DNA from: Minisyncoccota bacterium
Lineage (GTDB): Bacteria > Patescibacteriota > Minisyncoccia > Phycocordibacterales > UBA1550
DNA length: 64,000 nt
Reading direction: 5' to 3'
Assembly (NCBI GenBank): GCA_023229865.1
Contig: JALNYL010000002.1
Span: forward strand, 27,577-91,576
Shown: positions 17,308-44,537 of the stretch, one piece after another
Position numbering within the stretch: the stretch's first letter is position 1
Layout of the letters: each line of letters starts with the position of its first letter
Notes under the pieces: generated by a model
What the model was told of the DNA's origin: nothing
Database searches by the model: none
The model's input: the letters and a program-made list of their open reading frames with translations, nothing else
Program-made: the position numbers and the translations under genes

Positions 17308-18336
17308 GTGAGGGTATACTATACTAATATTATGGAACCATCTCCTCTTTCAAAACTTGAACCTGGCGTCTATCAAGGAATCCCCGACAATCTCAAAGAG
17401 AAAAAGTCGGCGGCCCCACGCATTGTCCGCACTATGAAGAGTGACGTAGCAGAAGCAATCAGAGACCAGGAAGAAACAACGGTCAGTATTGCTGTGGCAG
17501 AACAAAAAAAGCGTGCGCGCCTTCAATCAGAAGCACAGCAGACCCAACAAGCATCTGGCGAACCAGCCCCCGCACCGAAGCGCATTGGCCGTTTTATTGT
17601 AATCATCATTGTTCTTATCCTCCTTGGGCTTCTCGGCGCTGCATACGTATTTGTGTTGCCCAAATTAAGCGCAATCAAACTCCCGAGCGTTTCTCTCCCT
17701 TCCTTCGGTAGTCCCGCGAATACAAATGTCGCAACAACAACAGCGCCGACGACCCCCGCACTCGCAAACTCTCTCATCCCCGCACAGAGCGAGAAGCGTT
17801 TCGACATTACGAAAGAAGCGCGCGGGCAAATTTCTAAAGACATCGCAAGTGAACTCACCACCGGCGACACAGCAGGAAATATTAAAAATCTTTTCTTTAT
17901 CGAAGAAAGCGCGGGGATTTTCAGTGAAATATCTGCAAATCGCCTCATTATGTTCTCAGGAGCAAGTGCGCCAGAGATTTTCACCCGATCTCTTGAAAAG
18001 GGATTCATGGTGGGACTTTTAGTAGAAAACGTTGGCGCTTCAACACCATTTATAGTTCTTAAGGTTTCCGAGCGAGAACTCGGCTTTGCAGGAATGCTCG
18101 AATGGGAAAAATCACTGCCAACATTTTTTGACAATATGTTTGGCACCAACATCGGCACAGGGATTCCCCCAGAAACACGCTTCCGTGATCTCGTTATCTC
18201 AGGGAAAGACGCTCGCATGATTGCCGATGGGATAGGTAGTGGTATCGCATATTCATTTGTAAACAACACAACAATCATAATTGCAGGAAGTCGCACTGCG
18301 CTTGAGACCCTCATCCCGCTTGCCTCTACAAAGTAA
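17308..18336 (+). CDS. Hypothetical membrane-anchored protein
   Basis: 342 aa. Single TM helix FIVIIIVLILLGLLGAAYVFVL after a ~90-aa cytoplasmic N-terminus. The antisense 263-aa ORF was rejected. Confidence 0.5.
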   Translation: MRVYYTNIMEPSPLSKLEPGVYQGIPDNLKEKKSAAPRIVRTMKSDVAEAIRDQEETTVSIAVAEQKKRARLQSEAQQTQQASGEPAPAPKRIGRFIVIIIVLILLGLLGAAYVFVLPKLSAIKLPSVSLPSFGSPANTNVATTTAPTTPALANSLIPAQSEKRFDITKEARGQISKDIASELTTGDTAGNIKNLFFIEESAGIFSEISANRLIMFSGASAPEIFTRSLEKGFMVGLLVENVGASTPFIVLKVSERELGFAGMLEWEKSLPTFFDNMFGTNIGTGIPPETRFRDLVISGKDARMIADGIGSGIAYSFVNNTTIIIAGSRTALETLIPLASTK

Positions 18337-20419: not shown

Positions 20420-21442
20420 CTAGAACGGATTCTTTGCTCCACGAACTTCGAAGTGAAGGTGTGGCCCTGTTGACTTACCAGTGTTACCAACTTCACCAAT
20501 CATCTGACCCTTATCAACACGCGCGCCCACAGGAGTAAACACTGAACTCAAGTGACCATATAATGTCTTTGTGCCGTTAGGGTGTTCGATAATGATGTAG
20601 TTACCATAACCACTAAACCATGGGTTCGACAATGTTCTGAAGTTACTTACGATCACAACACCAGAAGCTGCTGCATACACAGGAGTCCCGATTGGGGCAC
20701 CGTAGTCAACACCATTGTTTCCATGAACTCCTTGAGTTTTGTGCCCAGCAGGGACAGGGTGTGTATAGTAGCCTGAATAGACAGGGAGCTTTGAAGAAGA
20801 ACGAACGGGGCTCGTCAAAACAGGGGCTGAAGACGAAGATTCACGTGCGCCAGGAAGAATGAGGACATCCCCTACAGCAAGCTTCGCACCACTTGTAAGG
20901 TCGTTAATTTCGAGAATATCATCGAGCGCACCACCATGTCTCTTAATAATGCTCTGAATAGTGTCGCCCTTTTTCACAGTGTACTGGATACCGTCGACAG
21001 GGAGAATAATGAGCGTTTGGCCCTCACGCAAAGCCGCCTTTGGGGCGAGATCGTTTGCCCAAAGAATCGTGTTTACAGAAAGGTCAAACATTTTAGCCAC
21101 CTGAGCAATGGTGTCCCCCGCGCGAACTACGTAGAGACTTACGTTTGCCTGGCGGTTATTTGATTCAATGTCTACCATGGTTCCCGACGGACCAACCTCG
21201 GCAATAAGAGCCTTGTCGTCTACAACAGTGATGTCGCCACCACCCATCGCCTTCTTTGAGTCAAAATTGTTGGCTCCCTCCAAAAAAGAAATCGTCTGAG
21301 AATTTTGGGCCTCAGAACGAAAAGCAGTCTCTGTAGACTTGTCAGACTTGCCCCAGAAATAAGAAAAAACGCTCGCTTGTGCTGTGGCAAGAGGAGCGCC
21401 GACCCCAGAAGTAACAACAGCCAAAAGAAGCCCGTTGCTCAT
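20420..21442 (-). CDS. LysM-domain M23 family peptidoglycan metalloendopeptidase
   Basis: Signal/TM N-terminus. Two LysM-like segments (YTVKKGDTIQSI.., YVVRAGDTIAQVA..). C-terminal M23 motifs HNGVDYGAPIGTPVYAAASGVV and GPHLHFEV. The start is taken at the MSNGLLL Met. Confidence 0.8.
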   Translation of the reverse strand: MSNGLLLAVVTSGVGAPLATAQASVFSYFWGKSDKSTETAFRSEAQNSQTISFLEGANNFDSKKAMGGGDITVVDDKALIAEVGPSGTMVDIESNNRQANVSLYVVRAGDTIAQVAKMFDLSVNTILWANDLAPKAALREGQTLIILPVDGIQYTVKKGDTIQSIIKRHGGALDDILEINDLTSGAKLAVGDVLILPGARESSSSAPVLTSPVRSSSKLPVYSGYYTHPVPAGHKTQGVHGNNGVDYGAPIGTPVYAAASGVVIVSNFRTLSNPWFSGYGNYIIIEHPNGTKTLYGHLSSVFTPVGARVDKGQMIGEVGNTGKSTGPHLHFEVRGAKNPF

Positions 21443-21771
21443 GAGCTTTGTAAAATATGGGTATTTCGCCCAGCCTGTCTTCTCCCCGCGGCTGAGGTCC
21501 TGTAGTTTTGTAGAAATGTTTCTATGAGATAGGTATCGTGCTGGTCGTGCGGTCGTGACGGGAAAATATCTTCTGTTCGGCAAACCTGGGGCCAATCCCC
21601 GTGGTTATCTAAATGGTAGCACAAAGAGGTCCTTTCGGGTAGGGGGATGGGGAAATGCTGTGGATAACTCAAAACTGTTGACTTTTCGGTATAATTTTGG
21701 TGTAATATTTGTATCGAAGGAACTAATTCATTTGTGCGTAGACACAAAAGTGTGCGATAATTCAAAAAACA

Positions 21772-24700
21772 ATGGAACGTCCAGGAAATCCAAATTCTCA
21801 TCACGAAAACAGGGGTAACGTAGACTCCTCTCTTGGGGCACAACTCAAGGCAAAAGGCTATGTTATTGAAACCACCAAAATAGATCAAGACGAAAACCAG
21901 AAAGAAGAGCTAAAAAAGCTCCTTGAGGCAAAACTACGAGAAAAAACAAAGGGCGAGGATAGAAATCATGAAGGAAATGGCCGTCAGGCAGGACCTGAGC
22001 TTACCGCCGCCCTCAAAGAAGCGGGGGTTATTACCGCTGCGGAGCGCGCAAGCACTGTTGCTCAGTTCAATAAAGAAAGAAGTGTTCTTATTAACGAAAT
22101 CGCTGAGGCAAAAAACAACATAGTAGAAGCCTTAACAAAAAAGGAGGGGAGATTGGCCCACAACTGGGATATTCGCCTTAAAAAATCAAAGGATATTTTA
22201 CGTATTTACGAAGAAGCAGCTTCGCTTATTGACTCTGATGTGGGGAAACACGCCCTCGAAAGCGTGCGCGGATACGCAAAACTTCGATACAATCAAGCAG
22301 CAAAAGAGCTTGTGGCTGATAGTTTCGTGGAAACAGGGAAGTTTGTTGCGCAAAATCCTGCTTGGGTTCCAGCGGAAAAAATAAAGAAGGTTGAGAAGGA
22401 GCCCTCTTTTAAGGATGGCGTCCCTGTGCTCACAGGGTTTATTGATCCAAAAGAAATACGAACAGTCACAAAAGAACGAGGGGGTCGCGTTGAAACAAAA
22501 TACAAAGGCGACAATGAAATAACCCCGCCTGTTTTTGAAGAGGAAAAACTCACACCAAGTGAGCGTGTTTCACACCCTCAGGCTATCCCAACGGAAAGAG
22601 TTTCATACCCACGAGTCACACCAACAGAGAGGATTTCACACCCAGAAGAAACCCCATCAAAACTCACGCCGAGCGAAACAATTTCATCCCCAGAGAAAAA
22701 ACCAAGAGAAATTTCAAGAGTTGCTCCTGGTATCTATGACCTTGCCAAGAAAAACAAAGAGGAGGGCCAACGCGACATGGATGGGCTTTTCAAACTCACC
22801 CCAAGTGAAACCATCTCTTACCCAACAGAGGAAAAGCTGGCACCGAGCGAGAGTGTTTCATATCCACAAGAAGAATCTGTGGTAACATTAGTAGATAATC
22901 CTAGCGAAGAAACATCTATGAAAGAGAATTTTGAAGCACCAACAGGAGCAACTGCGGACAATTGGCAAGAGAGAGCTCTTGAGGCTTTTGAAAATGAGGG
23001 GGGTAAAATTGCTCACGAGAATATTCCTTCCGAGGAATCACCTATTATTAGTGCCTCAAACGAAGCCATCCTTAAGGAGGTTGAGGTTATTGCAAAAAGC
23101 GAGGCGGCGCCAGAGCTTAACATTCTTGAAGTTCCATTGTCTCCAGAGCAAGCAACTCTTCGTGAAAAACTTTTGAATAAAATTGGGGCAGCAAACGAAG
23201 CTGTAGACAAACGTGCAGAGAAACTCCCTTCATGGGCACTCGAAAAAGTTCGTTCACTTGGCGAAACCTGGAACAAAGTTCCTCTCCGTGAAAAACTTTT
23301 GATCTCTACGGGGATGATTATTTCGGGTTCAACGCTTGGACTCGGCGCCGCAGCAACTCCTGCGTTTATCGCCGCAAGCATCGCTCTTCGTAGCCTCGGC
23401 GGAGTGGGTATGTTTACAGCAATTGATCAGAAACTCAAAGAGCGATTTGAAACAAAGAACGGCACCGCGCGCTCACAAAAAGAGGAAGCAACTCATCTCG
23501 CCATTGCGGGAGGAATCGCAATTATTGTAGCAGGCGTTCTCCCTTCTATTGCGCGTGACTACGCACTCAATCATTGGTTCTCACCAGAGACTCCTGGGGC
23601 AGGGGCCACAACAACACCAGAAGGTGGCGCATCTGCTCCCACAAATCATATCGAGATTGCACAACCAGGCGACTCAGTATGGAAGATGGCAGAGCGCGGA
23701 CTCGCAGCAAGTCTTGGAGAAAAATTCACTGCGCTTTCAGCAGAACAGCAAACATATCTTATCGACGCGGTAAAAGATCAAGTAGTTGGGCACCCTGATC
23801 AGTTTGGACTCACTGATGCTAGTGCGCTTCAGGTTGGACAAGGTATCGACTTCGGAATTGTTTTAAACAATGGTGATTTCATAGAGGGAGCGCTCGCGGA
23901 AGCAAAAGGACTGAGCGCGGAAGATGTTGCAAACATCAAAGGGGGCGCAGCGGGAGCAGCTGAGACTGTCCCACAAGGAGCACACGCAGGAACACCTGAA
24001 GCGATTATTTCACCATCACACCCAACAGCAGAAGCTGCGGGACTCAAAGTAACATTCTCATACAACCCAGATGGAAGCATCAAGGGGTACTCAGCGAGCG
24101 AGGTTTCAAACTTTGTACAACACGCAGAAGCGGAGAAGCTTCTCAACGACAACTGGCGTGAGGTTGTACGCAATCACTCGCAAGCAGGGATGATGGGGCT
24201 TGATATTAGTTCCGTAAACACAACCGCAAATACTTTGTTCCAATATGATCAAGTATTGAATGCGCTCGAGCAAAAGGGTGCGGGCAATAGTCCTGAAGCA
24301 AACTTCCTCCGTGAACAACTTGAGAGACTCGTAGTTGATACAGAAAAAGAATATGGTGATGTGTTTAAGGACACCACAGAACTTTTCAAACCAGAGGCAG
24401 TATCTCCCACACTAGAGACACCACCCGTCGCAGCAGCGACCCCAGTACAAGAAGTTCTCTCTACTGATCCTAAAGTTCTCGAAGTTGCGGATAAGCAATT
24501 CCATAATCATGTCGACAATGTATTCGGCTCAAAAGGTTTCTTCGGGTTCGGCGCAGTAGACGGCACGACAACTCCAAACTGGAAAGACCCTGAAGTTGGT
24601 TTTGCAAACAAGACGATTGAAGAAATAATGGGGGCAAAACCAATCGTTCTCCCCGGAGAGGAGGTAGAGCATTTCGGCATCGAAGACCGCGCGGCGACAG

Positions 24701-24822
24701 AGAAAATGCAAGACTACCTTATGCGCACGTTCAATGAGACGGGGATCAAGGTGGAAAATGGAGAGACAGCAGAAAAGTATCTCAAGCGTGTATCAATGTT
24801 AAGTGTTATGCATAAAGGATAA
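21772..24822 (+). CDS. Large hypothetical repeat-containing membrane protein (1016 aa)
   Basis: Tandem degenerate ~13-aa repeats (TPSERVSHPQAIP / TERVSYPRVTP / TERISHPEETP / LTPSETISSPEKKP / LTPSETISYPTEEK / LAPSESVSYPQEE). Two central hydrophobic helices. Long C-terminal globular region. Confidence 0.6.
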   Translation: MERPGNPNSHHENRGNVDSSLGAQLKAKGYVIETTKIDQDENQKEELKKLLEAKLREKTKGEDRNHEGNGRQAGPELTAALKEAGVITAAERASTVAQFNKERSVLINEIAEAKNNIVEALTKKEGRLAHNWDIRLKKSKDILRIYEEAASLIDSDVGKHALESVRGYAKLRYNQAAKELVADSFVETGKFVAQNPAWVPAEKIKKVEKEPSFKDGVPVLTGFIDPKEIRTVTKERGGRVETKYKGDNEITPPVFEEEKLTPSERVSHPQAIPTERVSYPRVTPTERISHPEETPSKLTPSETISSPEKKPREISRVAPGIYDLAKKNKEEGQRDMDGLFKLTPSETISYPTEEKLAPSESVSYPQEESVVTLVDNPSEETSMKENFEAPTGATADNWQERALEAFENEGGKIAHENIPSEESPIISASNEAILKEVEVIAKSEAAPELNILEVPLSPEQATLREKLLNKIGAANEAVDKRAEKLPSWALEKVRSLGETWNKVPLREKLLISTGMIISGSTLGLGAAATPAFIAASIALRSLGGVGMFTAIDQKLKERFETKNGTARSQKEEATHLAIAGGIAIIVAGVLPSIARDYALNHWFSPETPGAGATTTPEGGASAPTNHIEIAQPGDSVWKMAERGLAASLGEKFTALSAEQQTYLIDAVKDQVVGHPDQFGLTDASALQVGQGIDFGIVLNNGDFIEGALAEAKGLSAEDVANIKGGAAGAAETVPQGAHAGTPEAIISPSHPTAEAAGLKVTFSYNPDGSIKGYSASEVSNFVQHAEAEKLLNDNWREVVRNHSQAGMMGLDISSVNTTANTLFQYDQVLNALEQKGAGNSPEANFLREQLERLVVDTEKEYGDVFKDTTELFKPEAVSPTLETPPVAAATPVQEVLSTDPKVLEVADKQFHNHVDNVFGSKGFFGFGAVDGTTTPNWKDPEVGFANKTIEEIMGAKPIVLPGEEVEHFGIEDRAATEKMQDYLMRTFNETGIKVENGETAEKYLKRVSMLSVMHKG

Positions 24823-24834
24823 ATTAAAATAATT

Positions 24835-25128
24835 ATGGAAAATCAAGAACTTCGCGAAATAATAATAAAAGAACTTGGCATTGAAATTTTGCCCGAGGCT
24901 GCACAAAATGAAATCATCGGGAAACTCGGGGAGGTCATTTTGAAATCTGTCACCATTGCCATCTTTGAAAAACTTTCAGAGGAAGGGCGCGCGGAGTTTG
25001 AGCGCATAAGCAAAGAGGACGAACCAGAACTCATTCAGCGCTTCCTTGAAGAGCAGGTCCCTGACATGCAGACACTCATGGAGGAAGAGGTAAAGAGAAC
25101 ACTCAAGAGTCTTGCGGAAAAGGAGTAG
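24835..25128 (+). CDS. Hypothetical small acidic helical protein
   Basis: 97 aa. Tightly coupled 12 nt after the giant ORF. Followed by a 28-bp-stem palindromic terminator at 25138-25198. Confidence 0.45.
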   Translation: MENQELREIIIKELGIEILPEAAQNEIIGKLGEVILKSVTIAIFEKLSEEGRAEFERISKEDEPELIQRFLEEQVPDMQTLMEEEVKRTLKSLAEKE

Positions 25129-25321
25129 GGGGTAGTCAAAAAATCACGGAAAAATGCGCGCGGGCACTAGTGCCCGCGCGCATTTTTCCGTGATTTTTTA
25201 ATCTATGGTAAAGTACAAACATAAATGATTAAATTCTCCTTACTCGTCATTGCGAGCGAAGCGAAGCAATCCTGGGCCCTGACTTTACAAACTTTCAACT
25301 TTTAAGCTTTACAAACTCATT

Positions 25322-30207: not shown

Positions 30208-31158
30208 CTACAGTGCGAGATTGAGTTTCCCCATATTACTTACTCCGTTTTCGTTAAGGACACGTATTGATATTGAAAATGACTGCTTCGTTGCTTTTGG
30301 AGAAAATTTTACCGGAAAAGCATTTTGGGGGACAACAAACGAAACTGATGTCCCGTCCGCGGATGATACATTTTCAAAAAGCCCAATACCACTTACCATT
30401 ATCGTGTTATTGTTTTTAAGGAAACCAGAACCATGGATCACTACAGTATCTCCACGAGAAACAGTACCTAGTTCAGTCTTCTCTATTTTGGGCTCTGGAG
30501 AAACACCGTCTGTCACGATAAACCATTGTTCTTTATTGCTCTCTCCTCGAGCGTTTTTAACCGAAAGATTATAGAGACCTTTTGGGATTTCGGGGATCTT
30601 GAATGTAATTGATTGCCCGCTCTGCGAAGACGCTTTTATCACTGCGTGCTTGGTCCCAAAATATATAGTATTGTCATTCGTCGTAAAGCCGGCCCCCAAA
30701 ACAGTAATCATCGTTCCCGCCTTCCCTGAGTACTGAGAGGGGAACATTAGATACACTTTTCCTTGTTCTGTCGTAATTTGCGGAATCTCTTTTAGCGCTG
30801 TTGCGTCCGTCTTTTGAGAAGAAGTCAGCAATGCGCTTATTTTCTCTCGTGTTTTTGGGCCAAAAACTCCCGTACCTGATGTCAGCCCCACTGGGATAAG
30901 CACCTCATTGCGATATTTTTCTTGGAATTTTATAAGTGCGCGCTTTGTGGCTGATCCAAAATAATCAGTTTCGTTCCCCAAGGAGCCTGCCCCTGTCTCG
31001 GCAACCCGTGTTTGTGCATCAGAATTCAAAAATTTTTGAAGCGCGCGCACATCTTCTCCGTGCGTCCCCACAAAAAGCGTGCGCGTAAAATCATTAGTTG
31101 CGCCCAGGGCAGCAAAAGGGAAACACAAAATCGCAAGAAAAACTACATATCGTTTCAT
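30208..31158 (-). CDS. Secreted protein with peptidoglycan-binding (PG_binding_1-like) domain and Ig-like repeats
   Basis: Signal peptide MKRYVVFLAILCFPFAALG. GEDVRALQKFLN..GSATKRALIKFQEKY is the PG-binding helical repeat. Followed by IPT/Ig-like beta-rich repeats. Confidence 0.55.
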   Translation of the reverse strand: MKRYVVFLAILCFPFAALGATNDFTRTLFVGTHGEDVRALQKFLNSDAQTRVAETGAGSLGNETDYFGSATKRALIKFQEKYRNEVLIPVGLTSGTGVFGPKTREKISALLTSSQKTDATALKEIPQITTEQGKVYLMFPSQYSGKAGTMITVLGAGFTTNDNTIYFGTKHAVIKASSQSGQSITFKIPEIPKGLYNLSVKNARGESNKEQWFIVTDGVSPEPKIEKTELGTVSRGDTVVIHGSGFLKNNNTIMVSGIGLFENVSSADGTSVSFVVPQNAFPVKFSPKATKQSFSISIRVLNENGVSNMGKLNLAL

Positions 31159-31238
31159 TCTTAAAGAATACCACAGGAAGATAATTTTGTACTTGTGCAA
31201 AACTTCACTAGGCAAAAAGTTGGCAGGGGAGTATACTT

Positions 31239-33284
31239 TTGGGTATGGACTTACAAAATTTTTTACAAGATGAAAGAAAGAAGAAGATTTTAATTATTAG
31301 CGGAATTGTATTGTTTGTTGTTTTAGGTTCAATTTTTATTTTTAGTCGAAATAATCCTGCCCCCGTGGACACGACAGGAGATGGACAAACTCAGCTTTTG
31401 GACGACCTCGCAGGGATTGCACCAAGAGATGGGGTTGCTCAGGACCAAAATCGTCTCGTCGCACCACTTGTTAAGGTTTCAGCGGATGTCCCCGTCGTTG
31501 CCCCAGGACAGCCTTCTGTGATTTCTTGGAATGCAACCAACGCGACAAGCTGTGTCGACGGCAGTGGTAATGCTATCCGCACAAGTGGTAGTCTCTCTAT
31601 CACTCCTACAGAAAACTACACCATGGATGTGGTTTGCACCAACCCAAAGGGTACAACCATTGAGTCTATTACGGTTGCTGTTACAACGACACCCATCATT
31701 ACCCTCAGCGCATCTCCCGAATCAGTTCTTGCAGGAGAGCAATCTTTCATCTCGTGGAACACCGTCAACACCACTCGCTGCACCGACAGTGCAGGAAAAA
31801 CACTTCGTTTGAGCGGCGGTATGCCCGTTGTGATTTCAAAGCCTTACACCTTTGAAATTAACTGTTCTGGCCCAAATGGCACCGACAAGAAATCGATAAC
31901 GGTGGGAATTTCTACGGTAAAGACCACTGAAAGCGAGCTTAAATATGTCTGGGTATTTAAATCAAAAGCAACGGCGACAAGCGCCTCAAAAACGTCCACG
32001 TTCCAGACAAGCGCTGGCTGCCAATCTGCATATGAAAATTCGACCGCATACTCAAAAACAGCTTGTACAAAGGTTCCCGTTGGCACAGCTGGGTCGACCA
32101 CAGTAAACGATAGCAACTCCGGAGGAACAGTAGGAGGAGAAGAGATTCTTGTCTGTATCACCCTCAACCAAACCCTTGAGCTAAACTCAACGGACGCCAA
32201 CGCAAACGGCGAAGTAACGGTTCTCCAGAAATTCCTTAATCGCAAAGGGTTCTTGAGTGCCGCACCATCAGGAAATTTTGGAAGTCTCACCGAAGACGCG
32301 GTTAAGCAATTCCAGATTTCTGAGGGGATCCCTGCAACTGGCAAAGTTGACGCAGAAACAAAAGTTAAAATCAAAAGCGTAAGCTGTGCAGACGCCGAAG
32401 CCGCGGCAAAAAAACTCGCGGACGAAATTAACGCAGGGAAAAAAGAAAATGAAACTACAACCGTAGGAGAAGGAACTCTTGGCCCAAAAATTAAACTCAC
32501 AATGTCTCCTGACACCATTGGTTTTGGACAGACAGCAGTGCTCACCTGGGAAATTGCTGACGCAGTGAGCTGTATTGTAAAACCGCTAGGAGGCAGCGCA
32601 ATTGCTGTTGTCGCCGGGAAAACGAGAGTTCTCGAAGAAGGGAAAGCATTTGCGATTCCTGACGACACAGGATTTTCTGGATCATATAGCCTGAAATTGA
32701 ACGGGGCAGATCTTAGTGTTAAGTTTGAATTTAAATGTAGTGGAGCTGGAATCACCGCAACCAACCAGAAAACTCTTTATTGGGATACGGCATCTGCTTC
32801 TTTTACAGAAGCAGCAACAATAGACGATCTTGAAGCAAGTCCTACAGCCATCGCAGAAGCTGCAATAGGAGCAGAATCCGAAGTAAGTTGGACCGCCTAC
32901 AACGCAACGAGTTGTAAAGTTAGTGGCGATGCTTACACAAGAATCCTCACCGATAGTGGCGAGTGGAAATCTCTTAAGGGCCTTGCTTCAGCAGCACCAA
33001 CAACAGGAGTAGTGCGTATTAAGCCAGGATTTGAAGGTTCTCAGGTGCCATACCACTCAGAGCAGGTCACTACAACATGTCCACCATATAGTGGTGACGG
33101 AGGAGATTACTGTATTCCAACAACAAGCACCGTGACATCAGGTGACGGCGCGCGTAAGGGCAACGAGACAGCAGTGGTTACGGTCTCATGTACGGGACCT
33201 ATTAAACCAGATCCAAAACCAAAGTCTGTGGCGATAACCATTACTCCAACCCCTCCTCCTTCTGGCGGTGGTGGAGGTTGGTAA
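31239..33284 (+). CDS. Large cell-surface protein with repeated Ig-like domains and a central peptidoglycan-binding domain
   Basis: TM anchor near the N-terminus. At least three repeats of SxISWNxxNATxC..G. PG-binding-like GEVTVLQKFLNRKGF..EDAVKQFQISEGIPATGKVD. C-terminal PPPSGGGGGW. Terminator at 33298-33338. Confidence 0.55.
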   Translation: MGMDLQNFLQDERKKKILIISGIVLFVVLGSIFIFSRNNPAPVDTTGDGQTQLLDDLAGIAPRDGVAQDQNRLVAPLVKVSADVPVVAPGQPSVISWNATNATSCVDGSGNAIRTSGSLSITPTENYTMDVVCTNPKGTTIESITVAVTTTPIITLSASPESVLAGEQSFISWNTVNTTRCTDSAGKTLRLSGGMPVVISKPYTFEINCSGPNGTDKKSITVGISTVKTTESELKYVWVFKSKATATSASKTSTFQTSAGCQSAYENSTAYSKTACTKVPVGTAGSTTVNDSNSGGTVGGEEILVCITLNQTLELNSTDANANGEVTVLQKFLNRKGFLSAAPSGNFGSLTEDAVKQFQISEGIPATGKVDAETKVKIKSVSCADAEAAAKKLADEINAGKKENETTTVGEGTLGPKIKLTMSPDTIGFGQTAVLTWEIADAVSCIVKPLGGSAIAVVAGKTRVLEEGKAFAIPDDTGFSGSYSLKLNGADLSVKFEFKCSGAGITATNQKTLYWDTASASFTEAATIDDLEASPTAIAEAAIGAESEVSWTAYNATSCKVSGDAYTRILTDSGEWKSLKGLASAAPTTGVVRIKPGFEGSQVPYHSEQVTTTCPPYSGDGGDYCIPTTSTVTSGDGARKGNETAVVTVSCTGPIKPDPKPKSVAITITPTPPPSGGGGGW

Positions 33285-33368: not shown

Positions 33369-34391
33369 ATGAAGAGAAAAATTCTATTCATGAGTTTCAT
33401 GATTTTTGCACTGCTCGTAATCGCAAGCACTCTCTTCGTGTTGCCATCTCGCAACAAAATTAATGTTGTCGAACAAGGAATAAATTATATCGACAGACAC
33501 CAACTAGAAAACGGGCTTATTCCTTACACTTTTTGTTTTGATAAAAAACTCAATGAAAATTGTAAGCAAGGGAGAAATTATTATATAACCGCGTCCACTG
33601 TTTATTCTTTGGATAAAATTAGAAAAAATTATTCAAACGACAAACTAGACGACATCGTTGCAAAAAGTATAGGGTTACTAGGGGTTAATATGCCTCAAAA
33701 TGGTCTCTGGAAGTATGTTCCCATTGATGAGGATGCTGATATTTCAAAAATAGATCCCGACATAGACGACACCGTCTTGATTTCTTTTGTCTTAAACAAA
33801 CACGGATACACAACCAATAATCGTGCCGCCATCAGAAACAATAGGGATGGCAATGGATTATTTTACGAGTGGATCAGAGCCAGCAAAATTAACAATGAAG
33901 TAGACCCCATCGTTAACACAAATGCGGCATTGTACCTAAACGACAAAGAAATAAATCGGGTGATTTGTTCCGCCCTCTCAGGTGCCATAAAGAAAAATGA
34001 GGAATTATCAACTCAATCATATTCTGACAATAATTATGCTTTATATTATGCAATTTCAAGAGCTTACACAGAGGGGATTGACTGTTTTGGTACCGAAAAA
34101 GATTTAATTATCAAAAAAATAACCGCTGATCAACAAAAAACGGGACAGATTGGAGAAAACGAATTTACCACAGCCTTGGCCCTCAACACCCTTCTTCGCT
34201 TTGGACATGGCGACAAAGATTTCTACAACAAATCTTTTAACTACCTATTTAAAGGACAGCAGGAAGACGGAGGATGGGAACTGTATCCCTTTTATTGCGA
34301 AACAAGAGCGATGGTGTGGTGCTCGGGAAGTCGCTCTTACGCAACTGCCGTCGCCCTCGAAGCAATCACTCATTATTATTTCAAAAAATAG
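33369..34391 (+). CDS. Secreted protein with prenyltransferase/terpene-cyclase-like (alpha/alpha toroid, QxxDGGW) repeats; AT-rich
   Basis: Signal/TM FMIFALLVIASTLFVLP. QQEDGGWELYPFY and NRDGNGLFYEW match the Q-x2-DGGW repeat class of PFTB/squalene-cyclase domains. Codon usage is visibly AT-richer than the neighbours. Confidence 0.4.
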   Translation: MKRKILFMSFMIFALLVIASTLFVLPSRNKINVVEQGINYIDRHQLENGLIPYTFCFDKKLNENCKQGRNYYITASTVYSLDKIRKNYSNDKLDDIVAKSIGLLGVNMPQNGLWKYVPIDEDADISKIDPDIDDTVLISFVLNKHGYTTNNRAAIRNNRDGNGLFYEWIRASKINNEVDPIVNTNAALYLNDKEINRVICSALSGAIKKNEELSTQSYSDNNYALYYAISRAYTEGIDCFGTEKDLIIKKITADQQKTGQIGENEFTTALALNTLLRFGHGDKDFYNKSFNYLFKGQQEDGGWELYPFYCETRAMVWCSGSRSYATAVALEAITHYYFKK

Positions 34392-34472
34392 TAATGCCCT
34401 GTGCAAAAAAGCCCTCTATTTACTGTATTTTAAATATATTCTCTGGTACAATAAATACGAGGACTGCATATT

Positions 34473-35252
34473 ATGAACCCACTAGCCTGGCAATTTAAAA
34501 AAATTTTTTCTGTTCTGTTTGCAATCCTCGTTGGGCTAGGCATTATTTTCTTTGCGTGGAAAAGCACCGTTGCTCTCCCTGCAGAAAACACCCCAGAAAG
34601 TGAGGGGGGTGAGTGGAGAGATTCTCTAAGTGTCGTCCCTCAGGCGAGCTCAACAAAAACACTCGGGGCAGCAACACGGGGGGCTGAAGCAACGACGACA
34701 ACAGGGATCATCGCCCGCGAGCTCATGACAAACTATCTCGTCGCTCAAGACGGCACACCGTCCACAATGAGCGACGAGGATGCAGAACTTTTTGCACAAA
34801 AAGTTCTGGATAAAGGCACGCCAAGTTCTTCAATAAAAGAGTATACTCAAAAAGATTTTGTAGTCGTAGGGGCAAGCACCTCGACAGTTTCGCTTTATCA
34901 AAAAGAAATATCTCAAGCGATGAACACTCTTATGAAAGAGAATTCATTCAATGAGCTCCTCGTTGTTTCTAAGGCTATCGAAACAGGGGACCCCTCGGGG
35001 CTCAAGTCTTTAGACGGGGCAATCTCTAGCTATCAAAAACTCCTCAGGTCGCTTCTTTCTATAAAAGTTCCTCAAACATCGATTGCGCTTCATGTATACG
35101 TCACTCAGAGTTATGCGACGATTCTTTCTGGGGTTATTGATATGCAGAAAATTATTTCTGACCCCGTTATTGGGCTGCAGGGAATCGCAAAATACAACAA
35201 AGGAGTAGATATGCTTTCCCAAAGCAAAACACCATCTTCAACTATTAAATAA
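34473..35252 (+). CDS. Hypothetical membrane-anchored protein
   Basis: 259 aa. N-terminal TM helix then a soluble domain. Directly abuts the next ORF (stop at 35252, ATG at 35253). Confidence 0.45.
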   Translation: MNPLAWQFKKIFSVLFAILVGLGIIFFAWKSTVALPAENTPESEGGEWRDSLSVVPQASSTKTLGAATRGAEATTTTGIIARELMTNYLVAQDGTPSTMSDEDAELFAQKVLDKGTPSSSIKEYTQKDFVVVGASTSTVSLYQKEISQAMNTLMKENSFNELLVVSKAIETGDPSGLKSLDGAISSYQKLLRSLLSIKVPQTSIALHVYVTQSYATILSGVIDMQKIISDPVIGLQGIAKYNKGVDMLSQSKTPSSTIK

Positions 35253-36350
35253 TTGACTTGTATGAACTATCACAAAAAAAACAAAGCGCTCGCATTTCTC
35301 CTCCTTTTTTCACTTTTAAGTAGCTCTCTTTTTGTTCCTCAAGGTACCCGCGCAGCGACAACCTCTGGTTCTGCTTCGATTGACTGTGCAGAAGTAACAA
35401 CACTTGGGACAGAGATTCAAACAGTCGTCCAGGAGTGGGTAGCAGCAGCAGCGACAGAGATGGGAGCAAACGTAACATCTGTTCCTGTCCAAAACCCAGG
35501 GGCTGATACTTCAACAGCAGAAACCGCAGGGCAGACGACAGGCGAAACGACATGGCAGACGACAATAAAGGGCTTTTTAGATTGTGTTGTTTATAAAGCT
35601 GGGCAAATTGCTCTCGACAAACTCACCGATCAAACTATTACTTGGATCAAGGGGGGGATGAACGGGTCTCCTTATTACGCAATCGACCCTGCCCAATTTG
35701 AGCAAGACCTTATTGGTGCAGTTGCAGGCAATCTCTCTGCTCAAATCCGAGGACTTGAGCTTTGCGAATTCGACACAATGTTCAAAAACGACCTTGCCAA
35801 CTGGCTCGTCGTAGGGTCAACGGGGAACGCTGATTTAAAGTTTCAAAAAACCGTTGCCTGCCCATTTAAACAAATTAATGCTTCAGAGTTTTATAGTGGA
35901 GCGCAGGCCTTTACTTGGCAATACTTCGAGACGGCTCTCAATGATAGTGGTAATCCATTTGGAGTTTCCGTAGTTGCACAAAATGAATACACCAAGCAAC
36001 AAGCAGCGGAAGCAGCAAGGGCAAAACAACAACTTGATTGGGGCCAGGGATTCTTGAGTGTTGTAGACACAAGCGACTGTCAGTGGCCAGACGACATGAC
36101 AGAACAAGCGGTGGTGAATGGCGCCTCGTACAACGACGAGGGGGCAACACTTTCTGAGACAGAAATCGCCGCATATCAGCGAGCGTACTGCAAAAAAGTC
36201 ACCCCCGCACAACTCATCCAGAGCCAACTCACCAAATCAACAGAGAGTGAGTGGGATCGCCTTGGTTTTGCTGACAACCTCAACAAGATCATTAGTGCCT
36301 TTGTTACAAAAGTTTCTAATGACGCCGTAAAAGGTATTTTCAAAAAGTAA
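35253..36350 (+). CDS. Hypothetical secreted protein (T4SS-like cluster)
   Basis: 365 aa. Signal peptide ALAFLLLFSLLSSSLFVPQGTRA. Cys-containing soluble protein. 8-nt gap to the VirB6-like gene. Confidence 0.45.
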   Translation: MTCMNYHKKNKALAFLLLFSLLSSSLFVPQGTRAATTSGSASIDCAEVTTLGTEIQTVVQEWVAAAATEMGANVTSVPVQNPGADTSTAETAGQTTGETTWQTTIKGFLDCVVYKAGQIALDKLTDQTITWIKGGMNGSPYYAIDPAQFEQDLIGAVAGNLSAQIRGLELCEFDTMFKNDLANWLVVGSTGNADLKFQKTVACPFKQINASEFYSGAQAFTWQYFETALNDSGNPFGVSVVAQNEYTKQQAAEAARAKQQLDWGQGFLSVVDTSDCQWPDDMTEQAVVNGASYNDEGATLSETEIAAYQRAYCKKVTPAQLIQSQLTKSTESEWDRLGFADNLNKIISAFVTKVSNDAVKGIFKK

Positions 36351-36358
36351 TCACATAA

Positions 36359-38548
36359 ATGCATAATCTCTTCCCAAAACTTACAGCAATTCTCTTCGGG
36401 GCTGTTTTCTTGCTGGGAGGGGCGTCGATGGCGGGAGCTCAAGAGGCTTCCGTTATCTACTTTTATAAATTCAAAACAAACTCCGCAGAGAGCACTCCTT
36501 TCCAGTTTAAAGATTTTTCCACAGCAGCAGATTGTAATACCTCTCGAAGCACTGCCCCAACCTACGGACTATCCCCTTGTGTAGGGACCACAGTCGCGGG
36601 ACTTAACGCATTAAAACAAGCCGAGCAACAAAGAATGTCGTCTCTTGAAGCACGCGCTCGAAGTGCTGAAGAGAACGCTCTTTTTAAGAAGCTCAATTGT
36701 AACCCTGTTGGATCAATCATTGGGGGAGTTTTTGGTGGCGAAGGAACTCTTGCTGAGTGTGTCCCTGTTGTTACTTATTATGTAATCTACAAACCTGCCT
36801 CATGGCTCCTTATAGGTTCTGGTTTTATTTTTGACGCGATGCTTACATTGAGTATCGATAGCTCGTTTGTTAATCAAGAGTTTGTAGTAAGCACATGGAG
36901 TGTGGTGCGTGATTTCTCAAACATGCTCTTCATCTTCATCCTCCTTTATACAGGAGTGCAAACAGTCCTGGGAATAGGGAATTGGAGAAAGACAGTGCTT
37001 ATGGTCATCGTGATGGCACTCCTTATCAACTTCAGCCTCTTCTTTACTAAGGTTGTTATCGATGCGGGTAATGTGCTTGCGGTGGGAATATACAACAGCA
37101 TGGGAACTGAAAAGCCAACTGAGTTTCAGAGCTTTCAGAGCCCAGGGAAGGTCCACGAGCGTGACATTTCAGGTAGCCTTGCGGGGGCATTCCACCCAGA
37201 AAAATTCTTAAAGGTCTCAGGTGATGTCGATGCTCTTGATGCCACTATCGTATTCCTCATCGCAGCAATCGTCAGCGGTTACGCAGGATACATCTTTTTT
37301 AAAGCAGCACTCCTTTTTATTGGGCGTCTCGTAGCCTTTTGGTTCTTAATGATTGTCTCTCCGTTTGCATTTATTTCTATTGCCCTCCCCGCGGGAGCAA
37401 ACAAGTTCCAATCATGGCTTGACGAGCTGATTAGCCAAGCATTTATGGCGCCCGTATTCCTCTTCCTTATTTACCTCATTATGAAAGTCATTAGTGCGGG
37501 AGACGGCATCCTTGGGGCTCTTGTAAAACAGTCTGGCTCGAGCGTGGGAGCGTTTACTTTTGACAAAGTTCTTGCGCCCGTGATTATCGCCGCGATTCTT
37601 ATGTTCGCCCTTGAGCAAGCTTTTGGGTTTGCTAAAAAAATGTCAGGTGCCTTTGGTGAGTTTGGCTCAAGTCTCGGCGGGGCAGTAATGGGAATTGCAG
37701 GAGCAGGTCTTGTAGGGGGAGCAGCACGAGCTGGTCGCGTAGCTATTGGGGGGACAGCGCAGAGAATTTTGGATAGTGATAGACTTCAGGGCTTAGCGGC
37801 AAGTAAAAACACTTGGGCGCGCGCAACAGGAATCACCACCCTCGCACAAGGAGGAGTTCTTGCTGCAAACAAAGCAAAAGATGCTACTTACGATGTTCGC
37901 AATATCGGCGGAGCTATTGGAAAGGGAATCGGGACACTTGGAATGGGTAAGGGCGGGAAACTAAACTACGAAAAAGAAGAGGAGGCTTTTGTAAAAGAGC
38001 AGAAAAAACGCGCCGCAATGTTTGAGGTTGGTTCAGGGGCTGCACAAAAGGTCACCGTAGAAAAAACAAAAGAAACAGTCAAAGAAACTAAAGAGACTGT
38101 TAAAGAGCTCAAGGAGGTGAGAACGAAGGCGTCCGAAGAACTCAAGAAGGCAACCACAAAAGACACTGAGATGCGTAGCTCGGGGACATTTGACGAGGGG
38201 GTAAAGAGGGTTCTCGACGAGGCGAAGAGAAAGGACAAAGAAGCACAAGAGAGGCTTGAAGAGGCAGAGAAGAAAGCAGTTGAGGCAGAGCTTGCCGAAA
38301 AAGAAGCTTCCAAGGTTCTCAACACTGAGGATGAGCGCCGTCGAGGAGTACAGGGGAAGCAGGCTGCATTCTTCCATAAGCCATTCTCATCAGAAGAGAG
38401 AAAGAAGATTCGCGCAAAGATTCGCGAAGGAAAAACTTCAAAAGAAAAGGATGATGAAGACATAGCAAAAACACTCAAAAAGCTTGCGGAAAAGCTTCCA
38501 AAGGACGAAAAGGAGAAGGAAGAAAAGAAGGAAACTAGCGGACACTAA
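36359..38548 (+). CDS. VirB6/TrbL-like polytopic membrane protein with long charged coiled-coil C-terminus
   Basis: 729 aa. Signal peptide, ~130-aa periplasmic region, then 5-6 TM helices with large hydrophobic blocks (MLFIFILLYTGVQTVLGIG.., IVFLIAAIVSGYAGYIFFKAALLFIG..). C-terminal ~200 aa is K/E-rich coiled coil. Confidence 0.45.
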   Translation: MHNLFPKLTAILFGAVFLLGGASMAGAQEASVIYFYKFKTNSAESTPFQFKDFSTAADCNTSRSTAPTYGLSPCVGTTVAGLNALKQAEQQRMSSLEARARSAEENALFKKLNCNPVGSIIGGVFGGEGTLAECVPVVTYYVIYKPASWLLIGSGFIFDAMLTLSIDSSFVNQEFVVSTWSVVRDFSNMLFIFILLYTGVQTVLGIGNWRKTVLMVIVMALLINFSLFFTKVVIDAGNVLAVGIYNSMGTEKPTEFQSFQSPGKVHERDISGSLAGAFHPEKFLKVSGDVDALDATIVFLIAAIVSGYAGYIFFKAALLFIGRLVAFWFLMIVSPFAFISIALPAGANKFQSWLDELISQAFMAPVFLFLIYLIMKVISAGDGILGALVKQSGSSVGAFTFDKVLAPVIIAAILMFALEQAFGFAKKMSGAFGEFGSSLGGAVMGIAGAGLVGGAARAGRVAIGGTAQRILDSDRLQGLAASKNTWARATGITTLAQGGVLAANKAKDATYDVRNIGGAIGKGIGTLGMGKGGKLNYEKEEEAFVKEQKKRAAMFEVGSGAAQKVTVEKTKETVKETKETVKELKEVRTKASEELKKATTKDTEMRSSGTFDEGVKRVLDEAKRKDKEAQERLEEAEKKAVEAELAEKEASKVLNTEDERRRGVQGKQAAFFHKPFSSEERKKIRAKIREGKTSKEKDDEDIAKTLKKLAEKLPKDEKEKEEKKETSGH

Positions 38549-38555
38549 TTAAAAA

Positions 38556-39386
38556 ATGAACGAAGAAATTCAAAAAATCATTGAGGAACAACTCCCGAAA
38601 CTCCCAAAAGAAGTTGTGACTTTTTTGTCGTCAGCAAGTTGGGACGAGCACATACTGGAGATCAGCACGCTTTATAATCTCCCTGAAGATGAAGTAGCGA
38701 GTCTTAAAAATGAAGTAATTTTTGTTCTTATTGGACTAACGCCCCCTGATGAATTCAAAGAGATTCTTAGTGAGGAGACAGCTCTTCGAGGCTCTGTCCT
38801 TGATGCAGTCGTTTCTGCGGTGGAGAATAAAATCTTTGCTCCCGTTCGCCCCGCTCTTGCTGTGTTTTTTGAACAAGAAGCAGCACTTGCTACTGAATTC
38901 CCAGAAGAAGTATCTTTGGGGGTCGCAAAGGAGGCGACAGGAGAGGAGCCCCTTGCGGCACAAGGAGAGATAGTAGAAACACCGCAGGAAGCAGGGACTC
39001 TTCAGCTCGCGCCAACAACGGAGGAGATTATTCCTGCTCCATCAGTAGAAAAATTTACTTCACCCTTCTCCGCCATTATCCAACCAACACAAGTAAGAAC
39101 ATGGGAGAAAACCCCTGAGGTCGTCCCTGACAATCTTCCTACTGAGGACGCCGCGGAATCATTCTTGCCAAACCTTACCCCAAAAACTGTTGCGCAAACA
39201 GAAACTACTACAACCGCAGAACCAGAAGGGCACCCCTTTGAAGAAAAGATGAAGAAAGTATTTACCGCAGGACAGCAGTCGATGGGAGAGCTCGCTATTG
39301 AGCAAACAGTGCCGGCCACAAGCACCCCAGAGCGAAATGCTCCCCCCATTTATCACACAGACCCCTACCGCGAACCAATCGAATAG
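38556..39386 (+). CDS. Hypothetical acidic protein (T4SS-like cluster)
   Basis: 276 aa. E/P/T-rich, low complexity in the C-terminal half. Confidence 0.4.
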   Translation: MNEEIQKIIEEQLPKLPKEVVTFLSSASWDEHILEISTLYNLPEDEVASLKNEVIFVLIGLTPPDEFKEILSEETALRGSVLDAVVSAVENKIFAPVRPALAVFFEQEAALATEFPEEVSLGVAKEATGEEPLAAQGEIVETPQEAGTLQLAPTTEEIIPAPSVEKFTSPFSAIIQPTQVRTWEKTPEVVPDNLPTEDAAESFLPNLTPKTVAQTETTTTAEPEGHPFEEKMKKVFTAGQQSMGELAIEQTVPATSTPERNAPPIYHTDPYREPIE

Positions 39387-39444
39387 AACATTAAAAAGAA
39401 AAGGCCCTCATCACTGAGGGCCTTTGAGTTGTGTTTCGTTTCGA

Positions 39445-40197
39445 TTACTTCGCCGGAGATACAGCCGGAACGCCAGAAGCGGCGGCTGCATTCAGCTTGT
39501 CCATTGCGGGCACGAGCTTATTGAAGCCATCGGCGAACTCGGTTGCAATCACTTGCATGGAGATGTTTTTGCTGATCTCCCCCGACAAAACGTCAGGGGT
39601 ATCCACCGCCATGAGTGCAACGCCGAGATTGGTGTCGTCGCTCTTGGCCTGTCCGAGGACAGAAGCAATGGACTCGCCGGTCTCCATATCAACAACAGAC
39701 AGCGTAACCATAGCCTCAGTGAAACGCAGGTCATGCATCCCCCTCGACATTTCTTTTTGGGCGAGGAGTCCACCGAAAAGTGGGATTCGGCGGACGGCGC
39801 CAGCGGTTACAGCATTGTAGCTGTTCCCGATGACGGGTTGTGCCATTTCCATTTTCAGCTTGAATTTAACGCCGGCAGTGCCCGGTTCAACGAGAGTAAA
39901 GCAACCAGCCTGTTTTACCGCGTGACGGACAGTCACATCCACCATCGGGAAAGGGAGGCCGACACGGTTGAACATGAACGACAGCGATTTCGAAGAATTG
40001 TCCTCGAGAACCGCGCGGCCGTAGTTCTTGGCGCACTTGGAGAGCGCCGAAGCTGCTGGCTTCGCTGCTTCGGGAGCGGATGCCGCCGAAGGTGTTGCCG
40101 AGGTGCTGTTCACCAGATCGGTGATGTCAGCAGATGCGGAACCAACGAACAGAACGAACAGAAACAGGATCGAAACGAGATTTTGAATGAACTTCAT
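39445..40197 (-). CDS. Secreted protein (CsgG/LpoB-like fold suspected); GC-rich, opposite strand inside the T4SS-like cluster
   Basis: 250 aa. Clear signal peptide MKFIQNLVSILFLFVLFVGSASA. By eye the gene looks substantially more GC-rich than the window average. The overlapping plus-strand 269-aa ORF is an R/C-rich antisense artefact. Confidence 0.5.
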   Translation of the reverse strand: MKFIQNLVSILFLFVLFVGSASADITDLVNSTSATPSAASAPEAAKPAASALSKCAKNYGRAVLEDNSSKSLSFMFNRVGLPFPMVDVTVRHAVKQAGCFTLVEPGTAGVKFKLKMEMAQPVIGNSYNAVTAGAVRRIPLFGGLLAQKEMSRGMHDLRFTEAMVTLSVVDMETGESIASVLGQAKSDDTNLGVALMAVDTPDVLSGEISKNISMQVIATEFADGFNKLVPAMDKLNAAAASGVPAVSPAK

Positions 40198-40367
40198 GAT
40201 TGCTCTCCTTGTCTACGGTTGAGTTTCAAATGAGAAGAATAATGCTTTTCCCAAGTAACAGCATAGCAGATATTAAAATTTTGTCAACCCCCTAAATTAG
40301 TTCAATATTTTAAACAATAGAGTATAATACTCATACAGAAGGACGTATTTCCCAATATTCTACCCTC

Positions 40368-40829
40368 ATGCAATTTCACATCCCCCAGTACATCGATATC
40401 GAGGACAAGCTCTTTGGTCCACTTACTCTTAAGCAGGCGATTTATTTAGCTGGTGGCGCAGGTGGTATTTATTTGTTCTACCGCATTATCCCCTATATGT
40501 TTATCAAAGCGCCAATTATTTTGGCGATTGCGGTCCTCACGTGGGCACTCGCATTTTTCCCAAAAGAAAAACTAGGGAAACCATTTATCGATGTTCTTGA
40601 AGCAGCCTTTGCTTATATGCTCAAGGACAAGCTCTACACGTGGAAAAAAACAACGAAAGAGGCTGGTGCAAAAAAAGAAGAAGACTTTTTACCTTCTGTT
40701 CCAATAGCGACCCCTTCGGTCTCTGTGGGGAAACTCTCTAGCGCTTCGTTTGATCTCGACGTTCGCGGAGCCCAAAAAGGAGTGGAGGAACAAGACAAAA
40801 CGGGGAAAGATAGTGATATACTAAAGTAA
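40368..40829 (+). CDS. PrgI/VirB3-like small membrane protein
   Basis: 153 aa. DKLFGPLTLKQAIYLAGGAGGIYLFY resembles the PrgI-family fGpLTxrQ signature, followed by two TM helices. Confidence 0.45.
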   Translation: MQFHIPQYIDIEDKLFGPLTLKQAIYLAGGAGGIYLFYRIIPYMFIKAPIILAIAVLTWALAFFPKEKLGKPFIDVLEAAFAYMLKDKLYTWKKTTKEAGAKKEEDFLPSVPIATPSVSVGKLSSASFDLDVRGAQKGVEEQDKTGKDSDILK

Positions 40830-40833
40830 TACC

Positions 40834-41487
40834 ATGGCAGTTAAATCAAAAGCAGCACAAGATTTTGTTCCCATTAAAGAAATCCGCGACGGTGTCGTGA
40901 TTTTAAAAGACGGAACCATCCGTATGCTTCTTATGGCATCTTCGGTCAACCTCGCCCTCAAGTCTTCAGATGAGCAACAGGCGGTTTTGATGCAGTTCCA
41001 AAGTTTTTTGAACTCCCTAGAATTTTCAACTCAGGTATTTATCCAATCACGCCGTCTCGACATTCGCCCCTACCTTATTCTTCTTGAAGAGCGCCTCCAT
41101 GAGGAAGTCAACGATCTTCTTAAAATTCAGATTCGCGAATATATGGGCTTCGTAAAAACCATTGCTCAGTCCACCAATATTATGAGCAAGCTCTTTATTA
41201 TTGTTGTTCCTTACGCGCCACCAAAATCAGTTACGAGCTCTTCGTCATCAAGTGGGGGATTTAGCCTCTTTGGAGGGAAGAAGGACACAAGCAGCACTCC
41301 ATCGCAAAGCGCCGTCGAGGCTTTTGAGGAGGCACGCACACAGCTCGAGCAGCGCGCAGGTATTATCAGTCAAGGGCTCGCGCGCACGGGGGTTCGCGTG
41401 GTTCCCCTTGGTACTGAGGAGCTCACCGAGCTTTACTATCGCCTATTCAACCCAGGAGAGGTAGAGAAGAAGGTCGACGTAAGATAA
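40834..41487 (+). CDS. VirB4/TrbE-family ATPase, N-terminal domain fragment (separate ORF)
   Basis: 217 aa. AQDFVPIKEIRDGVVILKDGTIRMLLMASSVNL is the characteristic N-terminus of Gram-positive-type VirB4/TcpF/PrgJ ATPases. It ends 14 nt before, and in a different frame from, the ATPase ORF. Confidence 0.6.
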   Translation: MAVKSKAAQDFVPIKEIRDGVVILKDGTIRMLLMASSVNLALKSSDEQQAVLMQFQSFLNSLEFSTQVFIQSRRLDIRPYLILLEERLHEEVNDLLKIQIREYMGFVKTIAQSTNIMSKLFIIVVPYAPPKSVTSSSSSSGGFSLFGGKKDTSSTPSQSAVEAFEEARTQLEQRAGIISQGLARTGVRVVPLGTEELTELYYRLFNPGEVEKKVDVR

Positions 41488-41500
41488 CAAAACTATTTTT

Positions 41501-43342: not shown

Positions 43343-43412
43343 AAACAAAAGTCCACAAAAAGATCCTTCTTTTTGTGGACTTTTGCTGAATATTCGCGGT
43401 ATAATAAAATAT

Positions 43413-44534: not shown

Positions 44535-44537
44535 ATT

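Follow-up and report, generated by a model that had tools for sequence, protein, structure and literature searches.

A stretch of 64,000 nucleotides from a Minisyncoccota bacterium (GenBank assembly GCA_023229865.1, contig JALNYL010000002.1, positions 27,577 to 91,576), hereafter the window, encodes a 1016-aa protein, here called BIG, which belongs to a large and undescribed protein family. The family is restricted to Patescibacteria wherever the source organism is named, and it is defined by a membrane anchor and C-terminal ectodomains. BIG is followed by the gene for a small acidic protein of the Pfam family DUF5663 (PF18908), and this pairing is near-obligate across the family. With middling confidence, we propose that BIG is a peptidoglycan-tethered membrane scaffold that works with DUF5663 and is possibly accessory to a type IV secretion coupling protein (T4CP). 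The two genes and their terminator are as follows.

21772-24822, + strand: BIG, a 1016-aa putative envelope-spanning protein (open reading frame (ORF) with ATG start; 568 family cluster representatives)
24835-25128, + strand: the 97-aa partner, Pfam DUF5663 (PF18908), assigned by Pfam score and adjacency
25145-25192, both strands: strong bidirectional intrinsic terminator (20-bp stem, 13 GC pairs, T-runs on both strands)

The ATG start of BIG is kept in its homologues (alignment A1), and the protein is 100% identical to the NCBI hypothetical protein M0P64_01100 from a Candidatus Pacebacteria metagenome-assembled genome (MAG; homologue P0001). A spurious ORF is ruled out by the conservation of the family. 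The stop codon of BIG and the start of the 97-aa ORF are separated by 12 nt. The small protein is acidic (isoelectric point 4.5; 25 D+E against 13 K+R) and has neither a hydrophobic helix nor a signal peptide. The terminator lies directly 3' of the pair and closes off BIG and DUF5663 as a two-gene unit. The original prediction, which was made from the letters of the DNA, had described a membrane protein of 1016 aa with an acidic 97-aa gene coupled 12 nt downstream. This description is borne out. The same prediction stated that there was no annotation handle. This is correct for BIG, which has no family match in Pfam, NCBIfam, PHROGs, or PADLOC, but not for the 97-aa partner, which is a DUF5663 protein. 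Searches of PDB sequences with the single BIG sequence and with profiles returned nothing significant, and tblastn of the C-terminal half against plasmids gave 0 matches. A phage, plasmid or defence element was ruled out, as there were no matches.

The 97-aa protein scores 26.6 bits against the DUF5663 model, above the cut-off of 23.7, and covers model positions 1-79 of 84. The entire gene order is kept in the nearest relatives: NYN, a 337-aa protein, DksA-like, ComM, M23/LysM on the opposite strand, BIG, DUF5663, UvrD, sometimes UbiA, and KsgA. As such synteny alone could reflect shared ancestry, distant members were also sampled. In total, 88 loci, including 9 distant ones from genomes and 73 from metagenomes, were annotated with local hidden Markov models (HMMs). 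Among the 61 loci with at least 500 bp on both sides, 56 have a DUF5663 gene on the same strand as the BIG homologue and directly next to it. It follows BIG in 42 loci and precedes it in 14, and these loci represent unrelated gene neighbourhoods. After collapsing at 60% identity, DUF5663 is adjacent in 35 of 39 clusters. The partners in distant loci score 28-37 bits with Pfam. An all-against-all comparison of neighbours revealed no other gene that is as widely conserved beside BIG. DUF5663 has no described function. A full-text literature search found no paper that mentions DUF5663 or the BIG-DUF5663 module, and the near-obligate pairing is not recorded in searchable sources. It is most likely that the two proteins form a physical complex.

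The size of the family was determined by exhaustive HMMER searches with an alignment of the five word-indexed relatives. These searches yielded 568 cluster representatives at E<=1e-3, 346 at E<=1e-10, and 77 at E<=1e-30. Word-indexed homologue searches gave 5 and 8 relatives and badly under-represent the family. The named source organisms are Pacebacteria, Paceibacterota, Yonathbacteria, Parcubacteria, and Patescibacteria, with a single exception, a bin labelled Gammaproteobacteria. The exception, locus L011 (contig CAZXZY010000001.1), is recorded as "uncultured Gammaproteobacteria" and carries a BIG-DUF5663 pair typical of Patescibacteria; it is possibly a mis-binned or mis-classified MAG.

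Local HMMs delimited the following modules in BIG.

21934-22401, + strand: N1, the predicted cytoplasmic N-terminal region of a subfamily, E/K/A-rich, aa ~55-210 (phmmer, alignment A1)
23233-23589, + strand: M1, membrane module, aa 488-606 (hydropathy, 73-sequence alignment, AlphaFold2 (AF2) helices)
23641-23940, + strand: M2, probable divergent LysM-like ectodomain, aa 624-723 (motifs GDSVWK ... QQTYxIDAxKD ... VGQGIDFG)
23992-24393, + strand: M4, optional helical module between M2 and M3, aa 741-874 (phmmer with aa 721-888, family HMM)
24442-24813, + strand: M3, C-terminal domain, aa 891-1014 (motif FGSKGFFGFGxxDG..W.D..GFANKTVEEIM)

The C-terminal part, which had been predicted to contain no recognisable motif, is therefore composed of three family-conserved modules, M2, M4, and M3. 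The architectures among the representatives are M1-M2-M3, M1-M2-M4-M3, M1-M2, and isolated or duplicated M2 or M3. The isolated and duplicated copies indicate that M2 and M3 are autonomous domains. At least 13 other cluster representatives have M4, and the closest homologues, P0002-P0004, lack it; the segment of aa 721-888 is thus a shared module, and its interpretation as a query-specific insert is ruled out. The AF2 confidence for M4 (predicted local distance difference test, pLDDT) is low to moderate. On the N-terminal side, a phmmer search with aa 1-259 matched about 15 other cluster representatives over aa ~55-210. A short motif, S-S-[IL]-G-A-[QKH]-L, was observed at aa ~19-26 (BIG aa 1-30, window 21772-21860) and in 13 of 153 cluster representatives. 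Its carriers include members whose other N-terminal sequence differs.

M1 starts with a GETWNKxPxRxK box, which is followed by a hairpin of two transmembrane helices (TM1 and TM2, aa 509-551), a basic loop (aa 552-575), and a third helix (TM3, aa 576-595). Two hydrophobic helices had been counted here originally, and three is the better reading; AF2 also gives three helices in M1. Arg540 lies inside TM2, and 72 of the 73 aligned M1 modules have Arg at this position. The charge pattern of these 73 modules is as follows. The 15 residues before TM1 contain 4.5 K+R with a net charge of +3.2, the loop between TM2 and TM3 contains 6.1 K+R, and the 15 residues after TM3 contain 0.5 K+R with a net charge of -1.9. 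Under the positive-inside rule, this pattern predicts that the N-terminus is inside, followed by the TM1-TM2 hairpin, the loop inside, TM3, and the C-terminus outside. BIG has no signal peptide. In this predicted topology, the region N-terminal to the anchor, including the repeat array described below, would be cytoplasmic, and M2, M4, and M3 would be extracellular.

The ectodomain was modelled with P0002, in which M2 is directly followed by M3 (255 aa, alignment of 68 sequences), and the pLDDT was 87.6. Foldseek against PDB returned nothing below E=1, and M3 has no solved structural relative. For M2, a local profile-profile comparison (hhalign) of 111 M2 domains with the LysM of the neighbouring M23 peptidases gave a probability of 87%, with the match limited to the first strand and helix. 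In PDB sequences, a profile search gave weak matches of the same M2 segment to the LysM regions of SafA and LytE. The Pfam LysM model (PF01476) does not match BIG even at E<=1, and it matches 3 of 58 family members; our own LysM HMM gave a single weak match, in P0069 (E 0.007), located outside M2. M2 appears to resemble LysM in its predicted fold and in its first half. It differs in being ~100 aa long, against ~45 aa for LysM; a conserved helical stretch of considerable length (QKTYxIDAxKD) is inserted, and two helices are added at the C-terminus. The sequence alignment with LysM is confined to the first half, and the score is below the Pfam cut-off. M2 is probably a divergent and enlarged LysM-like domain, although it is not LysM by the Pfam criterion, and it would probably hold peptidoglycan. 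The original prediction placed the C-terminal domain outside well-known families. This stands for M3, which has no known relative, and is weakly touched by M2, which is LysM-like but below the Pfam threshold. No peptidoglycan hydrolase domain (SLT, CHAP, M23, or lysozyme) was found in BIG by Pfam, NCBIfam, or structural matching, and no conserved set of catalytic Cys, His or acidic residues is evident in M3.

A survey published in 2025 counted 5,713 VirD4-type coupling proteins in Patescibacteria, almost none of which is near virB4; it suggested that they are possibly exapted and left their role open (PMC12102498). In distant loci of the BIG family, a T4CP is often encoded beside the BIG-DUF5663 pair. 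It scores above the Pfam thresholds for T4SS-DNA_transf, TrwB_AAD_bind, and TraG-D_C and belongs to the VirD4/TraG type. A further small protein, here called X, accompanies it. X is ~135-160 aa long with a disordered N-terminus and a C-terminal helical motif containing LDEFHD (Q[IL]K.L[VI]DLA...AV.VA+.L.D.Y.LDEFHD.L), and it has no Pfam family. X genes were located as follows.

Locus L043, 8110-8598: X gene
Locus L083, 7273-7734: X gene
Locus L012, 5617-6081: X gene
20 other loci: X genes

The X gene always adjoins a VirD4-type T4CP gene, either in the interval that separates the latter from DUF5663 or on its immediate upstream side. Two gene orders were observed, BIG-DUF5663-X-T4CP and X-T4CP-BIG-DUF5663. 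X and the T4CP abut the BIG-DUF5663 pair in 12 of the 27 clusters with at least 3 kb of flanking sequence. In T4CPs of ~918 aa, a segment similar to X is fused to the N-terminus, and the precomputed Pfam annotation of these T4CPs includes DUF8128. Locus L024 shows the order ComM, M23 on the opposite strand, T4CP, BIG, DUF5663, and UvrD, which is the synteny of the window with an inserted T4CP. Locus L090 has a DUF5663 copy beside the T4CP without BIG. As a general explanation, the idea that BIG anchors a soluble T4CP was rejected, since the T4CPs associated with X have their own N-terminal hydrophobic helix.

These observations suggest the following function for BIG. BIG would span the membrane, and M2 would tether it to peptidoglycan. 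The anchor would consist of three helices with the near-invariant Arg buried in the second. The N-terminal half, variable in the family, would be cytoplasmic; here it contains a conserved region, predicted to be helical, and after it the six TPSE-x-(V/I)-S-x-P motifs. Outside the membrane would lie M2, the optional helical M4, and the conserved M3, whose fold is unknown. BIG and DUF5663 would be expressed from the two-gene operon and act as a complex, with DUF5663 as the small acidic cytoplasmic component. As the pair is found in one gene block with X and the T4CP in many relatives, it is proposed that BIG-DUF5663 forms a wall-tethered platform. Its cytoplasmic partners would be the T4CP and/or the substrates of the T4CP, which the platform would bring to the envelope or position there.

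Several points weigh against this proposal. In the window, M1 and M2 are recognised with the family HMMs and the same-strand DUF5663 gene is adjacent, 12 nt downstream, but no homologue of the T4CP or X is present in the 64 kb. The relatives linked to a T4CP carry M1-M2 only, and the subfamily with M3/M4, to which BIG of the window belongs, is never adjacent to a T4CP in the sampled loci. Sampling was also carried out from the T4CP side: six T4CPs were taken from the fused DUF8128 clade, the one nearest to the T4CP of L024. All six are in a SecY-Adk-Map-...-T4CP-NDK context. No BIG homologue was found in the three of these six loci that were scanned with HMMs, and DUF5663 is near the T4CP in one of the six (L090; precomputed Pfam). 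In addition, part of the gene-order conservation is due to shared ancestry (the block from ComM to UvrD, 6 clusters), and the predicted topology is based on hydropathy and charge bias. The link to the T4CP appears to be lineage-dependent, and for the present genome it would hold by homology.

In the SecY-Adk-Map-...-T4CP-NDK loci, another pair precedes the T4CP, a large protein (391-1019 aa) and a protein of ~94-122 aa.

Locus L090, 2516-5864: alternative pair
Locus L092, 3270-5939: alternative pair
Locus L093, 3434-4915: alternative pair
Locus L094, 3534-4987: alternative pair

The large protein has no Pfam match, and it has no TM helix in L090 and L092, where it was examined. The BIG and DUF5663 HMMs do not match the pair in these two loci, which were the ones scanned. 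On the evidence from L090 and L092, the large proteins are ruled out as divergent BIG homologues. These large and small proteins may be analogous partners.

The original prediction viewed BIG as built on tandem repeats with a period of ~13 aa, at least six in number. The array was located as below.

22549-22875, + strand: array of six (K)(L/A)TP(S/T)E-x-(V/I)-S-(H/Y/S)-P motifs, aa 260-368 (shuffle statistics; lineage-specific; predicted cytoplasmic)

The motif [ST]E.[VI]S.P occurs in six copies, at aa 263, 274, 285, 301, 345, and 359. In 20,000 composition-preserving shuffles, the mean was 0.008 and the maximum 2. As this motif was read off BIG itself, a motif-free statistic was added: the commonest 7-mer with up to 2 mismatches in aa 1-485 was observed 6 times, whereas 300 shuffles gave 2.0 on average and never more than 3. 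By both statistics BIG has more motifs than its composition gives, and the predicted number of repeats is confirmed. The period is revised to 11 aa for the first three units, and the remaining units are scattered, at gaps of 16, 44, and 14 aa. Tandem Repeats Finder detected no tandem repeat in the DNA. Among the residues identical between repeat units, 45 of 87 are encoded by differing codons, indicating that the units are old and kept at the peptide level, rather than being products of recent DNA duplication. The array occupies ~11% of the length of BIG. Among the 153 cluster representatives, the TPSE motif is limited to P0001-P0004, with 3-6 copies each, and P0007, with one copy. In a few other family members, this variable region holds short repeats of a different kind. 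The TPSE repeats are a local embellishment and not the basis of the protein, for which the anchor and the ectodomains are the defining parts.

These data also bear on the idea that the repeats, rich in Ser, Thr, Pro, and Tyr, are phosphorylation or glycosylation linker modules that define the function of the protein. In favour of this idea, the repeats are genuine and conserved as peptides, P+S+T account for 36% of the region, and the copy number differs among close homologues, which is typical of linkers or short-motif arrays. However, repeats restricted to four cluster representatives and a single copy in a fifth cannot explain the family, and a motif defined so precisely over 9 residues suggests a peptide for recognition rather than an unspecific linker. 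The neighbouring genes include no conserved kinase, FHA, or glycosyltransferase partner. Glycosylation of the envelope type is disfavoured, because there is no signal peptide and the positive-inside pattern of the 73 members would put the region in the cytoplasm. It is unlikely that such linkers define the function of BIG. It is possible that the repeats are phosphorylation sites or a peptide docking motif; under the scaffold proposal, they would be multivalent docking sites or phospho-sites in this lineage.

Another explanation relates BIG to the neighbouring peptidase gene.

20420-21595, - strand: LysM-M23 peptidase, divergent from BIG, 176 bp upstream

BIG could be a scaffold for cell-wall remodelling or division, unrelated to type IV secretion, which positions or regulates the LysM-M23 peptidase across the membrane in the manner of FtsEX-/EnvC-type regulators. 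The neighbouring gene, on the opposite strand, is kept in the relatives from Paceibacterota and Yonathbacteria, and the combination of a LysM-like ectodomain with a large cytoplasmic helical region in BIG would suit this role. However, the adjacency to M23 is confined to one synteny block (5-6 clusters, which also share ComM and UvrD) and absent in all other lineages. The T4CP sits between M23 and BIG in L024, and the universal partner is DUF5663, not M23. This role is thus improbable, to about the same degree as that of the linker modules.

The least likely explanation, with little in its favour overall, is a surface adhesin or host-contact protein of an epibiotic cell, in which M2, M4, and M3 would bind the host surface and the cytoplasmic tail would signal inward: the C-terminal domains are predicted to be extracellular, M3 is mobile (duplicated or alone in other proteins), and Patescibacteria are largely host-dependent (PMC12102498), but the ectodomain is small and is the most conserved part while the cytoplasmic half is variable, the reverse of usual adhesins, and the universal partner is cytoplasmic. 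None of these alternatives has a partner as widely conserved as DUF5663.

The window also contains a monoderm-type type IV secretion system (T4SS) cluster, which spans 33369-46943 (+ strand) directly upstream of YidC, dnaA, and dnaN. BIG is located about 17 coding sequences upstream of virB4, which counts in favour of the T4CP link in this genome.

36359-38548, + strand: 729-aa ORF in the T4SS cluster, among several ORFs with no Pfam match
40368-40829, + strand: PrgI/VirB3-like protein, T4SS cluster
41501-43342, + strand: VirB4-like ATPase, T4SS cluster
44538-45557, + strand: VirB2-type T4SS pilin, T4SS cluster
47001-47729, - strand: YidC
48785-50143: dnaA
50400-51500: dnaN

The window matches the oriC-proximal, KsgA-associated T4SS arrangement reported for Paceibacteria (PMC12102498). 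YidC, dnaA, and dnaN mark the replication origin region, and a GC dip at 50001-52000 (0.32 against ~0.45 elsewhere) coincides with it. Two divergent genes for PG_binding_1 proteins, one of which also has a TIG/IPT domain, lie between KsgA and the T4SS cluster, at 30208-31215 (- strand) and 31239-33284 (+ strand); their position is kept in relatives. The gene at 17308-18336 (+ strand) encodes a protein of 342 aa that has a single hydrophobic helix in its centre and belongs to no Pfam family; its position before DksA-like and ComM is kept in all close relatives. In an otherwise housekeeping region, the gene at 57553-58677 (+ strand) encodes a protein of 374 aa that includes a phage tail collar domain (PF07484, 98.7 bits).

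In Legionella, the coupling protein DotL works with DotM/DotN and the small acidic adaptors IcmS/IcmW. The gene sets of the BIG family resemble this coupling set of Dot/Icm. The genes for a VirD4-family ATPase, a membrane protein whose cytoplasmic part is large (BIG), and one or two small acidic helical proteins (DUF5663 and X) stand together in 12 of 27 lineages. Several differences are clear. BIG, DUF5663, and X have no known relation in sequence or fold to DotM, IcmS, or IcmW. BIG has a predicted extracellular part that resembles wall-binding domains, the T4CP is not adjacent in the lineage of the window, and the organisms are monoderm. The second comparison is with the VirB1-like cell-wall proteins of monoderm T4SS (PrgK, TrsG, and CwlT type), which are similarly membrane-anchored, have extracellular domains directed at peptidoglycan, and are encoded near T4SS genes. 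BIG has no hydrolase domain and differs from them in this respect, and its cytoplasmic half of ~500 aa is absent in VirB1-like proteins. Some VirB1 homologues of Patescibacteria carry LysM and M23 domains (PMC12102498). According to the summary in PMC12857230, type IV secretion genes of Patescibacteria are essential for epibiotic growth in the single tractable model.

A more specific version of the scaffold proposal can be formulated, although it is speculative and we consider it rather doubtful. In this version, the VirD4-like ATPase of Patescibacteria would have its missing partners in BIG, DUF5663, and X. The four proteins would form a coupling or translocation complex anchored to peptidoglycan, which would act separately from the VirB4 machine or upstream of it. 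The M3/M4 form in the window would be derived and would serve a T4CP, or the nearby oriC-proximal T4SS, in trans. The TPSE motifs would then be multivalent docking or phospho-switch sites.

Patescibacteria represent a large share of uncultured bacterial diversity. The BIG family, DUF5663, and X are concrete candidate partners for their T4CP, and DUF5663 gains its first genomic context. The gain for the window itself is smaller, in that a "hypothetical protein" is now a defined member of a multi-module family with a specific partner. The family offers a testable architecture, composed of a predicted cytoplasmic tail, an Arg-bearing membrane anchor, and an ectodomain that resembles wall-binding domains.

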